A DNA stretch of 64,000 nt from Elusimicrobiota bacterium (GCA_044221725.1 JBGAON010000004.1:32001-96000), one strand, 5' to 3'; positions 47,459 through 61,240 are shown, counted from the stretch's first letter. The notes: generated by a model not told the origin, from the sequence alone. Program-made: numbers and translations.

Positions 47459-48948
47459 AGCGCCGGTGGATTTTATTTTTTGTTTTGTGCGCGCTCGCTC
47501 TCTACGGTAAATCCCTTCGCTACGAATTTGTTTACGACGATCATTGGCGAATTGAGAACAATCTCGCCATTCGAACACTGGCAAATCCCGGACGCTTTTT
47601 TACCGATCGAACCACCCAGTCCAGCTCCCCGGCGCTTCACCGCGACAGCCATCGTCCGTTAACCATTCTTTCGTTCGCTTTTGACTACGCGGTTTGGCGT
47701 TTGCGCGCCGGCGGGTACCGGCTAACCAATATCGTGCTGCATGGAATTAATTCTTACCTGGTCGCCCAGGTGGCCATCCAGCTGTTCGGACTTTCATTGC
47801 TGGGCGCGATTTTTGCGGGACTTTTGTTTCTTGTGCATCCGATCAACATTGAATCGGTTGCGTGGATCGTAGAGCGAACCAATGTTCTCGGTTTCTTTTT
47901 CGCGTGGATGGGAATTCTTGCCGCTATTCGATTTCTTGATCGCGGGAAAGAACGTTGGGCCTGGCTCATGCACGCGAGTCTTGTCGCAAGTTTGCTGTCC
48001 CGCGAGATTGCTGTCGTTCTGCCCGTACTTTTTTTGTTGATCGGCTTCTATTGGAAAACACGCACACAGCGCTGTTGGCCGAGCACAATTTATGTTCACG
48101 GCGCGTTGTTGGTGGGCGAGGTGATCGCGTTTTTGGCCTTCCGCTCGCATGTGATCGGACAAATCAAGATTTCCGAGATGTGGGGAGGCACGTGGTCCTT
48201 GAACATGGCCAACGTCGTGGCCATTTGGCCGCTTTATTTGCGGTCGCTCGTTTTTCCACATCCGCTGTGTGTCACGTACGGATGGTTGCCGGTGGCTGAG
48301 CGTTGGCTTTCTCTGCGCGTGGTGCTGGGGGTTGGCTTTCTTGTCGCGACAATGAGCGCGGCAATTTTTTACGCACGAAAAGACGCGCGCATTACCGTGT
48401 GTTTGATCGCCGTAGGACTATTTTGGCTTCCCGGGTCCAACATGATTCCGCTCACCACGTTGTTCGGTGAGCGGCTTCTTTATCCGGTTGTGCCGTGGGC
48501 GGCAACCATTGTGGCGTTCGCGCTGGAGATGCGCGGAACCGCTCGCTCGGCTGTCGCATTCGCACTGGTCGTGCTGCTCGCGTCGGTGACATGGCTTGAA
48601 CTGCCAACCTGGCAAAACGATTACACATTGTGGCGACACGCGGTGCACGTACGCCCCCAAAGTTGGTTTGCTTGGGCGTGCCTTGGCGATCAGCAGCGGC
48701 GCCGACTCGAGTACGTAGAAGCTAAAGAATCGTTTGAGCGGGCGTTGCATTTCCAGGTGCCTGTGGATTCTGCCGGTGCGATATTTTTTCAATTGGCGGA
48801 GACCCATTTGGATCTAAACGACCGTAAATCCGCGGACGTGATGGCGGCGCGCGCGTTACTGTTGCGCCCCGATCTGCGGGACAATTGGCAAAACGCGTTG
48901 CGCCGACGTCATTTGGTAACATCCTCGACGAGCCATGACCGCGCTTAA
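47455..48948 (+). CDS. TMTC-like GT-C membrane glycosyltransferase with C-terminal TPR
   Basis: FVYDD, HRPL, VHPINIESVAWIVER, GERLLYP, WQNDYTLW. Confidence 0.8.
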   Translation: MKRRWILFFVLCALALYGKSLRYEFVYDDHWRIENNLAIRTLANPGRFFTDRTTQSSSPALHRDSHRPLTILSFAFDYAVWRLRAGGYRLTNIVLHGINSYLVAQVAIQLFGLSLLGAIFAGLLFLVHPINIESVAWIVERTNVLGFFFAWMGILAAIRFLDRGKERWAWLMHASLVASLLSREIAVVLPVLFLLIGFYWKTRTQRCWPSTIYVHGALLVGEVIAFLAFRSHVIGQIKISEMWGGTWSLNMANVVAIWPLYLRSLVFPHPLCVTYGWLPVAERWLSLRVVLGVGFLVATMSAAIFYARKDARITVCLIAVGLFWLPGSNMIPLTTLFGERLLYPVVPWAATIVAFALEMRGTARSAVAFALVVLLASVTWLELPTWQNDYTLWRHAVHVRPQSWFAWACLGDQQRRRLEYVEAKESFERALHFQVPVDSAGAIFFQLAETHLDLNDRKSADVMAARALLLRPDLRDNWQNALRRRHLVTSSTSHDRA

Positions 48949-49636
48949 GCTTTTTCTGTTTGATTTGGATGGCACGCTCGTGTCGACGGGCGGCGCCGGT
49001 ATGCGGGCCCTTGGCCACGCGTTCAAACATCTGTACAACGCCCCCGACGCGCACAAGCGCGTTAATCCCAGCGGTAAAACGGATCCCGCCATTTTTCGCG
49101 AAATTGTCCGCGCTTTGCTCGACCGCGACGCGCTTCCGGATGAATTAACTCAAATTGCAGAGGTGTACTTGCATCATTTGGAAATCGAAATGAAAACGTC
49201 CAACACACGGTCGCTGAGAGGTGTCGAGGATTTTGTGAAAACGGTTCTCGGTCGATCAAATATTTTGGCGGGCCTGGGCACCGGGAATCTTGAAAGAGGC
49301 GCGCGGCTTAAACTGGCGCCCACCGCGCTGCACAATGTCTTCGGGTTTGGTGGATTTGGTTCCGATGCGGAAGACCGCGCGGAAGTGTTGAAATTTGGTC
49401 ATCGTCGTGCGGTTCAAAACGCAGGCCGTGACATTGCAGCCGAAGCGGTGTTCATTATTGGTGACACGCTGCTGGATGTGGCGGCAGCCAAACGCGCTGG
49501 ATTTCGATCCGTGGCTGTGGCGTCGGGCATTGTAAGTTTTGATGAGCTTAAAGCGGGTGCGCCCGACTTTCTGTTGCGCGATCTCACCGAAGGTCGTGAA
49601 CTGCTCGAAGCGTTGGTTGACGGTGCGCGGCCATGA
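48935..49636 (+). CDS. HAD-family hydrolase (phosphoglycolate phosphatase-like)
   Basis: LFDLDGTL, GKTD, TGN, IGDTLLDV. Confidence 0.9.
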   Translation: MTALKLFLFDLDGTLVSTGGAGMRALGHAFKHLYNAPDAHKRVNPSGKTDPAIFREIVRALLDRDALPDELTQIAEVYLHHLEIEMKTSNTRSLRGVEDFVKTVLGRSNILAGLGTGNLERGARLKLAPTALHNVFGFGGFGSDAEDRAEVLKFGHRRAVQNAGRDIAAEAVFIIGDTLLDVAAAKRAGFRSVAVASGIVSFDELKAGAPDFLLRDLTEGRELLEALVDGARP

Positions 49637-51954
49637 GCAAGCTAAATGAGTTCCTTTTGAACACGGGGCGCACGCTGGCACAGATGGCGCTTTATTCACC
49701 CGATCATCCGACCGTCAAAGGCGCGGTCGATGAATCCCACCGCATGCTCACCGAAATGTTGACCGACTCCTCTGAGCTTGTGATCGCGATGGACGGCGCC
49801 AAACTGATTGTAAATGGAAAAAACCCCACGGGCGCACCCGACGCGGCCGTCCGTCCGTTCCTGCAGCTGCTCAAGACGCACAACCTTCACTCGCTCACGT
49901 TTATTCGCGGTACCCCTCTCACGGAAATTGTTGCTTTCTTTCGTTTGGCGTCCGCGAACGATATGCGCAAAGCGAATTTGAAAGCGGCCGATTTCTTTGC
50001 CGCACAAAATGTCACCTACATCAAATTGAACGAAGCGCGTTACGAAAAAGTGGGCGAAGATGAAACGATCGGCCGAAAAGACGCGGAGGAGCTCAACAAT
50101 GGTGCCGGGTCTACGCGTGGCGCATTTGAAAACCTTTCGCTAAACGATTTGTTGAAAAAATTGATCGGCAAAGCGGTCACGGATCCAACCGACCGCGAAC
50201 ATATTTTTAACCGCGCATTGGAACTGGTGAAAAATCAAATTGATACGGCGATTGAGAAGGTCGTTGTGGAATTTAACCGAGAGAAAACGCGGCTCACAAA
50301 CGAGCAGGTGCGCACCGAAAATGTGATCGGCGAGATGGCGGAAGGCGTGGTGGTCGTGGACGATAGCGGCAAAGTGCTTATGATGAACGGCGCCGCCGAA
50401 GAAATTTACGGTGTGAAACTCGGTGAAAGTCTCGGCAAGCCGCTGTGGGAAGGCGTTCGAGAAGAACAGATGATCGCGTTAGCCAAAGATCTCACGATTC
50501 CGACCGATCGACCGCTGACCAAAGAAGTCCAGATTCTAGGTTCGCAACAGGCGAAAAAAACGTTACGCGCGAGCGCCGCTGCCGTTCAAGACACCAACGG
50601 ACGGCTCGTCGGTATGGTGTCCGTGTTGTCCGATGTGACGAAACAAAAAGAACTCACGCGCATGCAGAACGATTTTATGGCGAACGTCACGCATGATCTG
50701 CGCGCCCCGGTGCACGCGCTGAAACTTTCGGTCAACGCAATTCTCGAAGGTTCGGCGGGGCCTGTGACCGGTGAACAAGAAAAAATGCTGTCACTGGCCA
50801 CAAAGAACGTGGATCGCCTCGCCCGGCTCATCGACGATTTGTTGGACTTTTCAAAGCTGGAATCCGGAAAGGTAGAAATTCGGCCACAGGTCACGGAGCT
50901 CGTGCCGCTTTTGAAAGAGGCCGTCGCCAGTATGGAAACGTGGTCAAAAGCGCGCGGCATCATGGTCTCGTTTCAAGAGTTCGATAATGTGCTGCCGGTG
51001 TTTGCGGACGCGGACCGTATTCTTCAAGTTGTGAACAATCTTATTTCCAACGCGATCAAATTTACGCCGGCCGGGGGGCGCATCGTTGTTCGCGCGAAAC
51101 GCTTTGAAGAACCCGGGAAAAACACGGTTGTCGTTGAAGTTGAAGACAACGGTAATGGGATTTCGAAAGAAGATCAAAGGCGAATCTTCGATCGTTTCGT
51201 GCAGCTTAAGCCAAACGAAAAACTCGATATTCGCGGCACGGGACTCGGCCTCAGCATCTGCCAGGCGTTGATCGATTTGCACAAAGGAAAACTGTGGGTG
51301 CAGAGCCCGCCGCCAGCAAGTCCCAAAGGAACGTTGTTCTCGTTCTCCTTGCCGGCCGTGCAACGTTCGGCGGCGACGTTGCTTCAGGCTCCGGTCGAGC
51401 ACGAAAAAATGGCGACGTCCACCAAGCCGCAAAAAGAAAGTTTTTGGAAGAAATTCTTTCGACGCTTTTCTGTCATTTTGATTCTTACGGGCTTCCTTGC
51501 ACCGGTTTATGCGCGGCCCTATTGGGGGACGGTTCGGCGGGTGCTCGATGCAAACTTGATCCAATTGACCGATGGAACGCGCGTTCGTTATCTGGGCATC
51601 ATTGTGCCAGAGAAAGGGCGTGGTAGCTCGGCCGAAGCTATGGCCGCGAACCGTAACTGGGTCGAGAACAAAGAGGTTCGGTTCGAATACGGTCTCCAGG
51701 AACGGGACACCGACGGCGTTTGGCTTGCGTACGTGTTTGCTGACGGCGTGTTCGTGAACGAAGAGCTGGTGAAGCAAGGCCTGGCGCTTGTTTCGGCGTT
51801 GCCGAACGAAGAAAGCTATCTGCGTGACTTGATCGCGGCCGAAAAAGAAGCGCACGATCATCGGCGTGGGCAATGGCAAGATACGGCGCTCGAAACGTAC
51901 CCGGTGCGGATCCGTCGCTCGCAGCCGGACAAGATCCGAGCAGGGGATCAATGA
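49633..51954 (+). CDS. PAS histidine kinase fused via a hydrophobic segment to a degenerate thermonuclease (SNase) domain
   Basis: N-terminal LYSPDHP domain, PAS, H-box VTHDLRAP, NLISNAIKFT, DNGNG, GTGLGL; then SVILILTGFLAPVYA and VRRVLDANL..VRYLGI..LAYVF..VNEELVKQGLA..AEKEA..RGQW. Confidence 0.85.
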   Translation: MSKLNEFLLNTGRTLAQMALYSPDHPTVKGAVDESHRMLTEMLTDSSELVIAMDGAKLIVNGKNPTGAPDAAVRPFLQLLKTHNLHSLTFIRGTPLTEIVAFFRLASANDMRKANLKAADFFAAQNVTYIKLNEARYEKVGEDETIGRKDAEELNNGAGSTRGAFENLSLNDLLKKLIGKAVTDPTDREHIFNRALELVKNQIDTAIEKVVVEFNREKTRLTNEQVRTENVIGEMAEGVVVVDDSGKVLMMNGAAEEIYGVKLGESLGKPLWEGVREEQMIALAKDLTIPTDRPLTKEVQILGSQQAKKTLRASAAAVQDTNGRLVGMVSVLSDVTKQKELTRMQNDFMANVTHDLRAPVHALKLSVNAILEGSAGPVTGEQEKMLSLATKNVDRLARLIDDLLDFSKLESGKVEIRPQVTELVPLLKEAVASMETWSKARGIMVSFQEFDNVLPVFADADRILQVVNNLISNAIKFTPAGGRIVVRAKRFEEPGKNTVVVEVEDNGNGISKEDQRRIFDRFVQLKPNEKLDIRGTGLGLSICQALIDLHKGKLWVQSPPPASPKGTLFSFSLPAVQRSAATLLQAPVEHEKMATSTKPQKESFWKKFFRRFSVILILTGFLAPVYARPYWGTVRRVLDANLIQLTDGTRVRYLGIIVPEKGRGSSAEAMAANRNWVENKEVRFEYGLQERDTDGVWLAYVFADGVFVNEELVKQGLALVSALPNEESYLRDLIAAEKEAHDHRRGQWQDTALETYPVRIRRSQPDKIRAGDQ

Positions 51955-52838
51955 TCTCCGAACTTGCTGATCGCGCGGTTTGGTCACGTTCGCAGGTCGG
52001 GGCGCTCGCCGAATGTCCTCGCAAGTTCGCACTCAATTTGAAATCCGCGCGCGACGCGCAAATCGATCCGGTGTACACGCGTGCCGCGAAGCTTAAGAAG
52101 ATGAAAAACCGTCATTTGTGGGCAGCTTCCCTGGTTCATGATGCGGTTGGATCGCTGCTCAAGTCGCTTCGTCAGGGGAGCCCGTTGCCGGAAGCGGAAC
52201 CTTTTATCAACGATCTCAAAACCAAAATGCGGGATGAGTTTAAAGCATCGCGGGGCGGCGCAAACGAAGTGCAACGCTTGTTTGAGCACGAGCACAACAT
52301 CGCGGTGGCGCCCGACGTGTGGCGCGGGCATTGGAACACGGTGGAATCAAGCGTGCGTTGGTTTTATCAATCGAAATGGCTGACGCGTCTTTCGACGCTT
52401 GGGCCGGAGTGCTGGAAAGCCGTGGACGAATTGCTCGAGTTCGATGTGGCCGGCATCAAATCGTACGCGAAGATCGATTGCGCCGTGGAATCGGATGGAA
52501 AATTTTTCCTCATCGATTGGAAAACGTCGAATCCAACCGCAGACGCTGAACCATCATTGCTTGTGAGCGCGCTCTACGCGCACGAAGTATGGGGCGCGGA
52601 ACCCGATCAAATCAACGCTCTGGCCGTTTCGCTTGTGTCGGGCCAAACGTTTCACGCCGACGTGAACGAAGATTCGCTGATGAACACGCATCTGCGCATT
52701 GAAGAAGAGTCGGCCGCGCTTGAGCAAGCCAAAGCGAAATTCTCTGCGGATCCGTTCACGGCGGAAAAAATTTCGGACATAAATAAATGTCGCCGCTGCT
52801 CGTACCAAAAGCTGTGTTACCCCGAGGGTGTGCGATGA
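51951..52838 (+). CDS. PD-(D/E)XK nuclease (AddB/Cas4-like, four Cys)
   Basis: ECPRKF, KID..IDWKTS, CRRCSYQKLC; ATGA coupling at 51951. Confidence 0.85.
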   Translation: MISELADRAVWSRSQVGALAECPRKFALNLKSARDAQIDPVYTRAAKLKKMKNRHLWAASLVHDAVGSLLKSLRQGSPLPEAEPFINDLKTKMRDEFKASRGGANEVQRLFEHEHNIAVAPDVWRGHWNTVESSVRWFYQSKWLTRLSTLGPECWKAVDELLEFDVAGIKSYAKIDCAVESDGKFFLIDWKTSNPTADAEPSLLVSALYAHEVWGAEPDQINALAVSLVSGQTFHADVNEDSLMNTHLRIEEESAALEQAKAKFSADPFTAEKISDINKCRRCSYQKLCYPEGVR

Positions 52839-53491
52839 TGCCCGTGGGTTCGGTTGCGGCCGTGACGTCCGATGTGTTGCGCGCAACAACGTACGAAGAA
52901 TTTAAAACCAAGCTCATCGCGTCCAACTGTTCAAAGTGCCCGGAACTCTGTCAGAGCCGACACAATATCGTCGTGGACCGCGGAAATCCGCAAACGAAGG
53001 TTTTGGTCATCGGAGAGGCGCCCGGAGAAAATGAAGATTTGCAAGGTCGCGCGTTCGTGGGCCGCGCCGGTCAGTTGCTCGACAAAATTATGGCGTCCAT
53101 AGATTTGGATACAAACAACGACATGTTGATCGTAAACGTCGTAAAATGTCGGCCTCCGGAAAATCGCGCACCGAAGCCGGTGGAGGCCGACAATTGCAGA
53201 GCCTATCTGAAGTGGCAAATCGATTTTGTAAAGCCCGAGGTGGTGGTGCTCTTGGGCGCAACGGCCGCCAAACACTTGATGCCGGAGCAAAAAGGCCAAG
53301 GCATGAAAGAACGCGTTGGGCAATTGTTCGATCTTTCGACGTATCCCAACACCAAATTTTTATTGTTGTACCACCCGGCTTATTTGCTGAGAGATCCGCG
53401 AAAGAAACCCGAGATGTGGGAACATGTAAAAAAGCTCAAAGCGTATCTTGAGTCGAGAAAGGTAGCAGCCTTAGGAGGCTCCTCATCATGA
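52835..53491 (+). CDS. Family 4 uracil-DNA glycosylase
   Basis: CSKCPEL, IGEAPGENED, FVGRAG, NVVKCRPPENR, YHPAYLLR. Confidence 0.95.
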   Translation: MMPVGSVAAVTSDVLRATTYEEFKTKLIASNCSKCPELCQSRHNIVVDRGNPQTKVLVIGEAPGENEDLQGRAFVGRAGQLLDKIMASIDLDTNNDMLIVNVVKCRPPENRAPKPVEADNCRAYLKWQIDFVKPEVVVLLGATAAKHLMPEQKGQGMKERVGQLFDLSTYPNTKFLLLYHPAYLLRDPRKKPEMWEHVKKLKAYLESRKVAALGGSSS

Positions 53492-60278: not shown

Positions 60279-60641
60279 ATGTGGGTTGTTGCCGGAAGCG
60301 TTTTCATGTTTCTCGCGGTGGCGATTGGTGCGTTTGGCGCGCACGGATTAAAAAGCCGCGTTCCCGCCGATATGCTTGTCGTTTTTGAGACCGGCGTACG
60401 CTACCACGTCTATCATGCGCTCGCGTTGTTTCTCGTAGCATGGCTTGCGGAGAAGAATATTTCTCCAACTATCAATTACGCCGGGTGGGCGTTCGCGGTG
60501 GGAATTTTTCTTTTTTCGGGGAGTCTCTACGCTCTGGTGCTCACGGGTGTGCGCGCGCTTGGCGCAATCACGCCGCTTGGTGGCTTGAGTTTCTTAATTG
60601 GCTGGGCCATCGTCGGTTTTTCTTACTTAAAAAAGGCGTAA
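60279..60641 (+). CDS. DUF423 (YgdD/TMEM256) membrane protein
   Basis: GAFGAHGL, TGVRYHVYHA, FSGSLY, GAITPLGG. Confidence 0.93.
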   Translation: MWVVAGSVFMFLAVAIGAFGAHGLKSRVPADMLVVFETGVRYHVYHALALFLVAWLAEKNISPTINYAGWAFAVGIFLFSGSLYALVLTGVRALGAITPLGGLSFLIGWAIVGFSYLKKA

Positions 60642-61240
60642 GCTTCCTGTTCGTCCGCATCGCCGCGCGTTAGCGGCCCTTCCTCTCTCCACAGTCCGCG
60701 TTTTTTCTCGCGGGCCTCGCGCTCGATCCGACGAAAATCCTCGATGTGCTCAAAAGGAAACTTCGTGTACGCATTCGCGTAACCCGCCTCAACGATAAGC
60801 GCGTTTAGAAATCCTTTTTGAAAGGACGGTAGCTCGCAGACTTGCTCGGCAATCTCCTGCGCGAATTCGTCGCAGCTGGGCGGGTCAAAGTAAACATAGG
60901 CCAACGTGCGCCCATATCGATCCTTATTATTATGGGGTTGGTTTCGCTGGTCATAGCCCAGCCGGACGGCGCGGTTCTGAATCACGTTCTTTGTGAAGCT
61001 CGCCGCGCGTTTTCCCAATTCGCGAATGAGTTTCTCATCATGATGGGTGCGTGCCGCGTCCTTGCGTAACTTGGCGGACTCGTGCAATTCGGGCGTGTCG
61101 ATGCCGATCAGGCGAACGCGCACGTTGTTCGACAGCACGAGCGTGTCACCATCAACAACGCGCTTCACCGTCAACGTTTTTGCGTTCACCGGAACTACCA
61201 CCAACGCAAGAAGACAAAGTGAGGGGAAAATCTTTGTCAT
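60623..61240 (-). CDS. Secreted thermonuclease (SNase family) with intact active site
   Basis: VVDGDT, RLIGIDTPE, DRYGRTLAYV, EAREKKRGLW. Confidence 0.93.
   Translation of the reverse strand: MTKIFPSLCLLALVVVPVNAKTLTVKRVVDGDTLVLSNNVRVRLIGIDTPELHESAKLRKDAARTHHDEKLIRELGKRAASFTKNVIQNRAVRLGYDQRNQPHNNKDRYGRTLAYVYFDPPSCDEFAQEIAEQVCELPSFQKGFLNALIVEAGYANAYTKFPFEHIEDFRRIEREAREKKRGLWREEGPLTRGDADEQEAYAFFK

Follow-up and report, generated by a model that had tools for sequence, protein, structure and literature searches.

We analysed a stretch of 64,000 nucleotides from an Elusimicrobiota bacterium (GCA_044221725.1, JBGAON010000004.1:32001-96000), hereafter the window, meaning the whole stretch at its full length. 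The subject is the open reading frame (ORF) at 49633..51954 on the plus strand, which encodes 773 amino acids and a stop in a single open frame and is called the window copy below. From the N- to the C-terminus its product comprises an N-terminal domain (N-domain), PAS, HisKA and HATPase_c domains, a variable linker, a basic-aromatic motif, a short hydrophobic segment and a domain with the fold of staphylococcal nuclease (SNase; Table 1). A low-complexity linker and a long helix (residues 159-229) join the N-domain to PAS, and a Pfam scan of residues 1-225 gave no match, while the Pfam SNase match covers residues 650-750 (E = 1.1e-11, 45.6 bits against a cut-off of 21). An earlier note on this DNA had described a frame that runs from an intact PAS-HisKA-HATPase through WKKFFRRF and a hydrophobic stretch into an SNase-fold domain, and Pfam and the reading of the ORF both bear this out. 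Histidine kinases almost always carry their input domains ahead of the catalytic core; in the family described here, a predicted exported, dead nuclease fold is maintained behind that core, under selection as strong as that on the kinase.

Table 1. Features of the kinase-SNase locus and of the comparison gene in the window, with the basis of each assignment.
Feature	Position	Strand	Basis or remark
HAD-family hydrolase gene	48935..49636	+	stop overlaps kinase start (ATGA)
Whole ORF, kinase joined to SNase-like domain	49633..51954	+	ORF reading and Pfam
N-terminal alpha/beta domain, residues 1-140	49633..50052	+	conservation and AlphaFold2; without Pfam family
PAS domain, residues 231-337	50323..50643	+	Pfam PAS_9 E 4e-9, also PAS_4, PAS
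HisKA dimerisation/phospho-acceptor domain, residues 345-412, H354 in THDLR	50665..50868	+	Pfam E 7.4e-16
HATPase_c catalytic domain, residues 459-575, N/G1/F/G2 boxes	51007..51357	+	Pfam E 5.1e-30
Variable Pro/Ala/Ser/Lys-rich leash, residues 578-603 (26 residues), contains in-frame ATG 51409	51364..51441	+	
Basic-aromatic motif FWKKFFRRF, residues 604-612	51442..51468	+	acts as positive n-region
Short hydrophobic segment SVILILTGFLAPVYA ending VYA, residues 613-627	51469..51513	+	signal-peptide-like or signal-anchor
SNase-fold domain without nuclease active site, residues 628-760	51514..51912	+	Pfam, phmmer, AlphaFold2 and Foldseek
Variable basic C-terminal tail, residues 761-773	51913..51951	+	mean identity 0.25, pLDDT ~55
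PD-(D/E)XK nuclease-family gene, C-terminal Cys cluster	51951..52838	+	PDDEXK_1 E 9e-11; ATG overlaps kinase stop (ATGA)
Family-4 uracil-DNA glycosylase gene	52787..53491	+	TIGR00758, 176.7 bits against cut-off 125.3
Canonical secreted SNase paralogue, comparison only	60623..61240	-	DGDT, GIDTPE, DRYGR and N-terminal signal peptide

The fusion across genomes

A search with residues 585-773 covered 5.8 billion clustered proteins and returned 24 proteins of 676-794 amino acids, all of which carry PAS, HisKA, HATPase_c and SNase together; one is labelled by its source as coming from an Elusimicrobia bacterium. We aligned 23 full-length homologues, leaving out P0012 (676 amino acids, N-terminally short, on a 2-kb contig), and the counts per alignment column given below refer to this set. 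Within the window's family the fusion is one stop-free frame in 11 of 12 genomes, the window's own included, and the single genome missing it is 71% complete and 14% contaminated. Contigs from runs of two other studies span 51087-51550 and 51336-51527 with 0 differences and 0 gaps, which answers the earlier suggestion to look for a lost stop near the junction. No relative with the two parts as separate genes was found.

We compared the rates at which the parts of the protein evolve. Mean pairwise identity was 0.61 for the SNase-like part, 0.63 for the HATPase region and 0.55 for the N-domain, compared with 0.22 for the linker (residues 578-603) and 0.25 for the C-terminal tail. Nonsynonymous divergence (dN) within the genus was 0.12-0.23 in the SNase-like part, 0.11-0.14 in the kinase core and 0.64-1.23 in the linker, and pairs that are more alike in the kinase part tend to be more alike in the SNase part (r = 0.84, 253 pairs). 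Because the identity and dN of the SNase-like part match those of the kinase core while the linker drifts, its sequence record indicates a domain under purifying selection, kept rather than decaying.

The loss of catalytic residues described below could by itself suggest decay, in which case the locus would hold a lost stop, an assembly error or a neutrally drifting SNase remnant. The open frame in 11 of 12 genomes, a junction that is identical in independent runs, and an SNase part that evolves as slowly as the kinase core, being as conserved as HATPase while the linkers drift, together rule out these explanations, and we give them a negligible probability.

The earlier note had suggested looking for HATPase_c followed by SNase in independent genomes. 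Among the best 150 of 7872 matches, 16 proteins (14 longer than 370 amino acids) were scanned with Pfam, and none carried kinase domains, so that this sample yielded no second fusion of independent origin. Full-text literature searches, at the level of titles and the starts of abstracts, returned no description of a kinase-SNase fusion in print.

Parts of the gene also occur in assembled environmental samples. In the interval 51000-52100 they lie on contigs of wastewater metatranscriptome libraries (runs X9, X10 and X13), and metatranscriptome library contigs cover 51210-51488 and 51526-51725, with DNA carry-over possible in such libraries, so that these contigs need not stem from transcripts. 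The organism is also present in sludge, wastewater and bioreactor metagenomes of ~10 studies.

The SNase fold and its active-site positions

The C-terminal domain aligned with staphylococcal nuclease in a phmmer search against PDB (E = 6e-10, ~30% identity). In an AlphaFold2 (AF2) model of residues 578-773, built from an 84-row alignment, the domain reached a predicted local distance difference test score (pLDDT) of 95-98, and Foldseek matched it to staphylococcal nuclease with a template modelling score (target) of 0.77-0.86, E = 3.5e-11 and a root-mean-square deviation of ~2 Å. Its oligonucleotide/oligosaccharide-binding (OB) fold barrel and three helices are superposable on those of staphylococcal nuclease. 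Searching the ESM Atlas returned generic SNase clusters only, at 0.81.

In staphylococcal nuclease, D21 and D40 are Ca2+ ligands (T41 contributes through its backbone), R35 and R87 serve phosphate binding and the transition state, and E43 is the general base. The phmmer alignment places N641 of the window copy at D21, I657 at D40, V658 at T41, T693 at K84, D694 at Y85 and V696 at R87, with R35 and E43 kept as R652 and E660. Y113 and Y115, which we take to be the tyrosines that stack on the base, align to Ala and Pro. The earlier note had singled out D21, D40 and R87 from a comparison with the intact paralogue at 60623, and these substitutions stand: BLASTP to the paralogue and phmmer agree that DGDT has become DANL, GIDTPE has become GIIVPE and DRYGR has become DTDGV.

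The same positions are lost or unconstrained across the homologues. Equivalents of R87, K84 and Y85 were each found in 0 of 23, the D21 column holds N, T, D and S (13, 4, 5 and 1 rows), and the D40 and E43 columns each hold nine residue types, with D in 3 of 23 and E in 4 of 23 (the window copy included), respectively. Positions D21, D40 and E43 are among the most variable columns of the SNase-like domain, and R35, P42 and G86 are invariant (23/23). Most other invariant residues are also kept by canonical SNases in the 84-row alignment, indicating maintenance of the fold rather than a new pocket at the old site. As read from its residues, the domain lacks the nuclease active site, and it does not qualify as an active thermonuclease at D21, D40 or R87.

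Invariance of R35, together with the acids that early-branching members keep at the D21 and D40 positions, could be taken to mean that the domain still cleaves nucleic acid with other residues. We consider this very improbable, given that all 23 homologues lack R87, that conservation at E43 is missing and that D21, D40 and R87 have given way to N, I and V in the window copy. Net charge was dropped as an argument against DNA binding, since neither it nor the isoelectric point sets the domain apart from canonical SNases: the domain core has a median isoelectric point of 5.6, no different from the 5.55 of 71 canonical SNase hits.

Two known groups offer comparisons. The domain shares with the staphylococcal nuclease/thermonuclease family (PF00565) the OB-type fold and a precursor layout in which the first strand comes a few residues after a signal-peptide-like segment; it differs in the replacement of the Ca2+ ligands D21 and D40 and of the phosphate-binding R87, K84 and Y85, and in standing C-terminal to a 627-residue kinase part instead of alone. 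In eukaryotic Tudor-SN (SND1), SNase-fold domains without catalytic residues serve as binding modules. The likeness is a catalytically dead SNase fold and is drawn at the level of the general fold only, since the SN domains of Tudor-SN are eukaryotic, cytoplasmic or nuclear, and arranged as tandem repeats with a Tudor domain.

Tandem arrangements were also seen in other metagenomes, where P0027 (707 amino acids), P0051 (1113 amino acids), P0054 and P0068 carry 3-5 SNase-like repeats. Those of P0027 and P0051 seemingly do without the DGDT, DTPE and YGR motifs, and the tandem-repeat proteins resemble a bacterial counterpart of multi-SN-domain proteins.

Junction, kinase part and origin of the fusion

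The segment that joins the two parts was assessed across 11 family loci and the 23 homologues. The window protein has a single hydrophobic stretch, which is the main one in all 11 loci; before residue 603 there is none in 10 of them and one borderline stretch, at residue 187, in the other (L008). The uncharged run before R628 is 14-20 residues long where position -2 is not acidic, with a hydrophobic core of ~10-15. It is preceded by 3-5 basic residues (KK..RR in the window copy), and many of the homologues have a helix breaker near -4 to -6. Ala occupies -1 in 23 of 23 homologues and A, V, L or S occupies -3 in 22 of 23, followed by Arg (one Lys) at +1 and Pro at +2 in 23 of 23. The signal-peptidase-like site, which the earlier note had seen in the VYA end in setting out an alternative, thus proved the best conserved feature of the junction. 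From the segment end to the first strand there are six residues in the window copy and five in the secreted paralogue. AF2 predicts residues 604-626 as one helix with moderate confidence (78-88) and gives the leash (residues 578-603) a pLDDT of ~60, so that the leash between HATPase_c and the membrane segment is probably disordered.

These features give the junction the look of a cleavable Sec signal peptide or type II signal anchor, with a basic n-region, a short h-region, a helix breaker and small residues at -3 and -1, and it follows the sequence rules for Sec signal peptides and signal peptidase I in all but N-terminal position. The segment starts at residue 604 of 773, some 600 residues from the N-terminus and behind folded cytoplasmic domains, in which it differs from both classes. 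The flanking charges favour insertion with the N-terminal side in the cytoplasm and the C-terminal side outside (N-in/C-out), and the predicted layout supports the earlier view that the SNase-fold domain is probably extracytoplasmic.

A separate product of the SNase-like domain, made from an internal start such as ATG 51409 so that two overlapping genes share the frame, had been raised as another alternative. This in-frame ATG, which encodes M593, would give a precursor with an N-terminal signal peptide. The start is not conserved, however: an ATG lies upstream of the motif in 4 of 11 loci, at differing places, a Shine-Dalgarno-like motif is found in 2 of 11, and in 2 of 11 the 50 codons that precede the basic-aromatic motif contain no ATG, GTG or TTG. 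In all 11 genomes the two parts are joined without an intervening stop, and we find a separate product hardly credible.

The histidine kinase looks intact and of class I type (HisKA and HATPase_c), because residues of its H, N, G1, F and G2 boxes are all present and invariant in the aligned homologues (H354, N469, N473, D505, G507, G509, F519, F522 and G535-G539). Residues 201-578 match NCBIfam models of PnpS/WalK/PhoR type (E = 1e-58 to 1e-71, all below the curated cut-offs), and the likeness to these PAS-HisKA-HATPase kinases lies in the kinase core and its intact boxes. The window kinase differs from them in having no N-terminal transmembrane helices, no HAMP and no adjoining response regulator, and in adding an N-domain of its own and a C-terminal, predicted exported domain. 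With no HAMP found in the Pfam scan, it departs from the canonical transmembrane sensor layout, and none of the loci read has a response regulator gene adjoining the kinase.

The N-domain is common to fused and non-fused orthologues, with invariant Y21, H25, P26, N61, G62, L85, S87 and N133. Its AF2 model has an overall pLDDT of 88, and Foldseek against PDB gave no clear match (best E 0.16). A wide search with VIA-align aligned only the long helix at 160-230 (Z ≤ 5.7), and residues 1-140 were hardly probed by it. We regard the N-domain as a candidate for an uncharacterised cytoplasmic input domain.

Orthologous kinases of other families in the class share the N-domain, PAS and kinase core, and they show what preceded the fusion. 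In 14 of 14 loci read, the non-fused proteins extend only 8-14 residues past the first position of a (S/T/G/P)(W/F)(W/L)x(K/R)(L/F/I/M)(F/L) motif (for example ...SWWQKLFGG and ...GWLSRLFGG, in L012-L025), which sits on an equally variable leash. FWKKFF of the window copy is the same motif, and F604 and W605 are nearly invariant in the fused homologues. No SNase gene lies beside the non-fused orthologues in any of these 14 loci. The FWKKFF-type tail presumably resembles the C-terminal amphipathic membrane-targeting tail of MinD. Like membrane-targeting sequences of the MinD/FtsA type, it is a short motif at the extreme C-terminus on a flexible leash in the non-fused orthologues, and its sequence suggests a tail that would direct the kinase to the membrane. 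MinD binds the membrane through an amphipathic helix at its C-terminus (PMC8155659). The kinase tails differ from it in having no statistical support for amphipathicity, and the window's family adds a hydrophobic segment after the motif. For the tail comparison, no MinD above the cut-off was found in the window's genome.

The origin of the SNase part was traced in larger collections. Among 1.84 billion representatives, no close stand-alone relative of the mature SNase-like domain was found: the three clusters at E < 1e-30 are one fused protein and two fragments on contigs of ~1 kb, and the next matches are ordinary SNases at 33-48% identity. P0025, P0026 and P0029 were considered as short stand-alone forms and rejected as most likely fragments, their contigs being 1074, 910 and 1589 nt long. 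Across 393 genomes of the class the SNase-like domain occurs only in fused form, and the five other SNase matches (E ≤ 1e-12) are canonical, unlinked and on other contigs (four read).

A quick maximum-likelihood tree of the kinase part, with 23 fused and 12 non-fused rows (two further non-fused rows were dropped by a filter) and support from the Shimodaira-Hasegawa-like approximate likelihood ratio test (SH-aLRT) only, gathered the fused proteins into a single group (support 100). Acids at D21 and D40 are confined to eight early-branching rows (5/8 and 7/8, respectively), and the 15 crown rows, among them the window copy, have none; this confinement fits a Ca2+ site that was lost in steps once the fusion had arisen. 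The simplest history that the sequences suggest is one fusion at the base of the family, between a tail-bearing cytoplasmic kinase and a secreted SNase precursor. The ancestor would have been a cytoplasmic kinase held at the membrane by its C-terminal tail; one family would have joined it to an SNase precursor with the signal peptide retained, and the nuclease site would have decayed step by step afterwards. The path from peripheral tail through fusion with a secreted enzyme precursor to stepwise loss of the active site may thus be recorded in present-day genomes.

The early-branching fused proteins (P0017, P0018 and P0020-P0023; L007, L010 and L011) have an extra conserved tail, ...G(F/L)PWA(S/T)xEE..K(R/K/T)G.K, after the SNase-like domain. 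The window copy does not have it.

Readings of the topology and genomic neighbourhood

Taken as a whole, the combination of an intact kinase, a predicted N-in/C-out segment and an exported, dead SNase-fold domain serving as a non-catalytic module is the reading that we favour, at slightly better than an even chance. By inserting N-in/C-out, the segment would tether the kinase to the inner membrane and bring the dead nuclease domain out into the periplasm. Sensing would likely be the task of the cytoplasmic N-domain and PAS, and the periplasmic domain would likely act as a non-catalytic binding, anchoring or localising module. Whether signal peptidase I cuts between A627 and R628, at the conserved AxA/RP site, we judge to be evenly balanced; cleavage would produce a free periplasmic protein and, in the same quantity, a kinase anchored by its tail.

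The earlier note had proposed that the protein is an inverted-topology receptor, left uncleaved, in which DNA, RNA, a nucleotide or another ligand bound by the periplasmic pseudonuclease alters kinase activity. Several features would suit such a receptor: the predicted extracytoplasmic domain is as conserved as the kinase core, the juxtamembrane RPYWG is conserved with about six residues from the membrane segment to the first strand, R35 is kept in 23 of 23 homologues, and the operon holds a PD-(D/E)XK nuclease and a uracil-DNA glycosylase (UDG). The closest precedent is BlaR1/MecR1, in which an enzyme-derived sensor domain is C-terminal and extracellular and the effector domain cytoplasmic; the folds differ, however, and those proteins have several transmembrane helices and a protease output, whereas here the output would be a kinase, linked through a variable leash. 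On the other side, the residues for nucleotide contact and Ca2+ are gone and their positions vary without constraint, so that no upkeep of the old pocket is seen, and the signal peptidase I-type site is conserved. The cytoplasmic leash differs in both length and sequence between homologues, is modelled with low pLDDT and is older than the fusion, already occurring in the non-fused orthologues, which argues against conformational coupling and leaves no rigid path for a signal to the HATPase domain to which the module is attached C-terminally. We regard an uncleaved receptor of this kind as unlikely, and one whose ligand is a nucleic acid or nucleotide as more unlikely still. The proposed nucleic-acid sensor signalling across the membrane therefore finds no support here, with the pocket columns least conserved and the leash at 22% identity, and the SNase-fold domain is more likely an anchor or binding module.

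The hydrophobic helix might also not span the membrane, in which case the SNase-like domain would remain in the cytoplasm and bind protein or nucleic acid as part of a kinase that is soluble or peripheral. A hydrophobic core of only ~15 residues, an ancestor that was probably peripheral and an AF2 helix confidence that is only moderate are consistent with this, but the layout is that of a classic signal peptide and matches the one that the secreted paralogue and the nearest canonical SNases have in their precursors. We therefore think a cytoplasmic location quite improbable, and keep to the exported, non-catalytic module.

Several observations weigh against this favoured reading or its supporting steps. 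Topology, export and cleavage are predicted from sequence rules alone, it is unusual for bacteria to have an internal signal peptide that follows 600 residues of folded cytoplasmic protein, one of the 23 homologues has Tyr at -3, and the invariant A-R-P could have a structural role instead of marking a cleavage site. Synonymous sites are saturated (proportion of synonymous differences, pS, 0.58-0.99), which makes dN/dS ratios unreliable, and the strong conservation implies that the domain does something, with which a sensory role exerted through clustering or localisation is compatible. For the history, a hydrophobic-moment test placed 0 of 12 ancestral tails above shuffles at p < 0.05, and the base of the fused group is not settled in the quick SH-aLRT tree. 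The PD-(D/E)XK nuclease and uracil-DNA glycosylase genes that share the conserved operon weakly suggest a DNA theme; this evidence is weak because kin share gene order by descent.

The consequences depend on the fate of the junction. If the domain stays attached, the protein would represent a novel receptor topology and a case of a pseudoenzyme put to use in bacterial signalling; with cleavage at the signal-peptidase-type site, one gene would supply equal amounts of a periplasmic protein and of a cytoplasmic enzyme anchored by its tail. Were the nucleic-acid receptor true, it would be the first demonstration that a bacterial kinase can use a dead nuclease to detect DNA beyond the cytoplasm. 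The host bacteria are uncultivated, and the present value of the locus is therefore that of a testable hypothesis and not of a solved mechanism.

The neighbourhood of the fused gene is stable. The string of HAD hydrolase, kinase-SNase, PD-(D/E)XK and UDG genes (48935-53491 in the window; L002-L010) is conserved through the window's family, with the hydrolase as upstream neighbour in most family loci and the PD-(D/E)XK gene kept downstream. The HAD/PD-(D/E)XK/UDG string is not found beside the non-fused orthologues.

Elsewhere in the window, the SNase paralogue on the minus strand has long insertions relative to staphylococcal nuclease and is nearest to the model of the calcium-activated nuclease EcnA, below its cut-off (78.9 against 180 bits). 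In a sister family, stand-alone canonical SNases (L031-L034; genomes G293, G023, G013 and G030) combine a lipoprotein-like N-terminus with a Cys/His motif conserved at the C-terminus, FHRPxCxF...CRxCxP, which by its residues looks like a small zinc-binding module.

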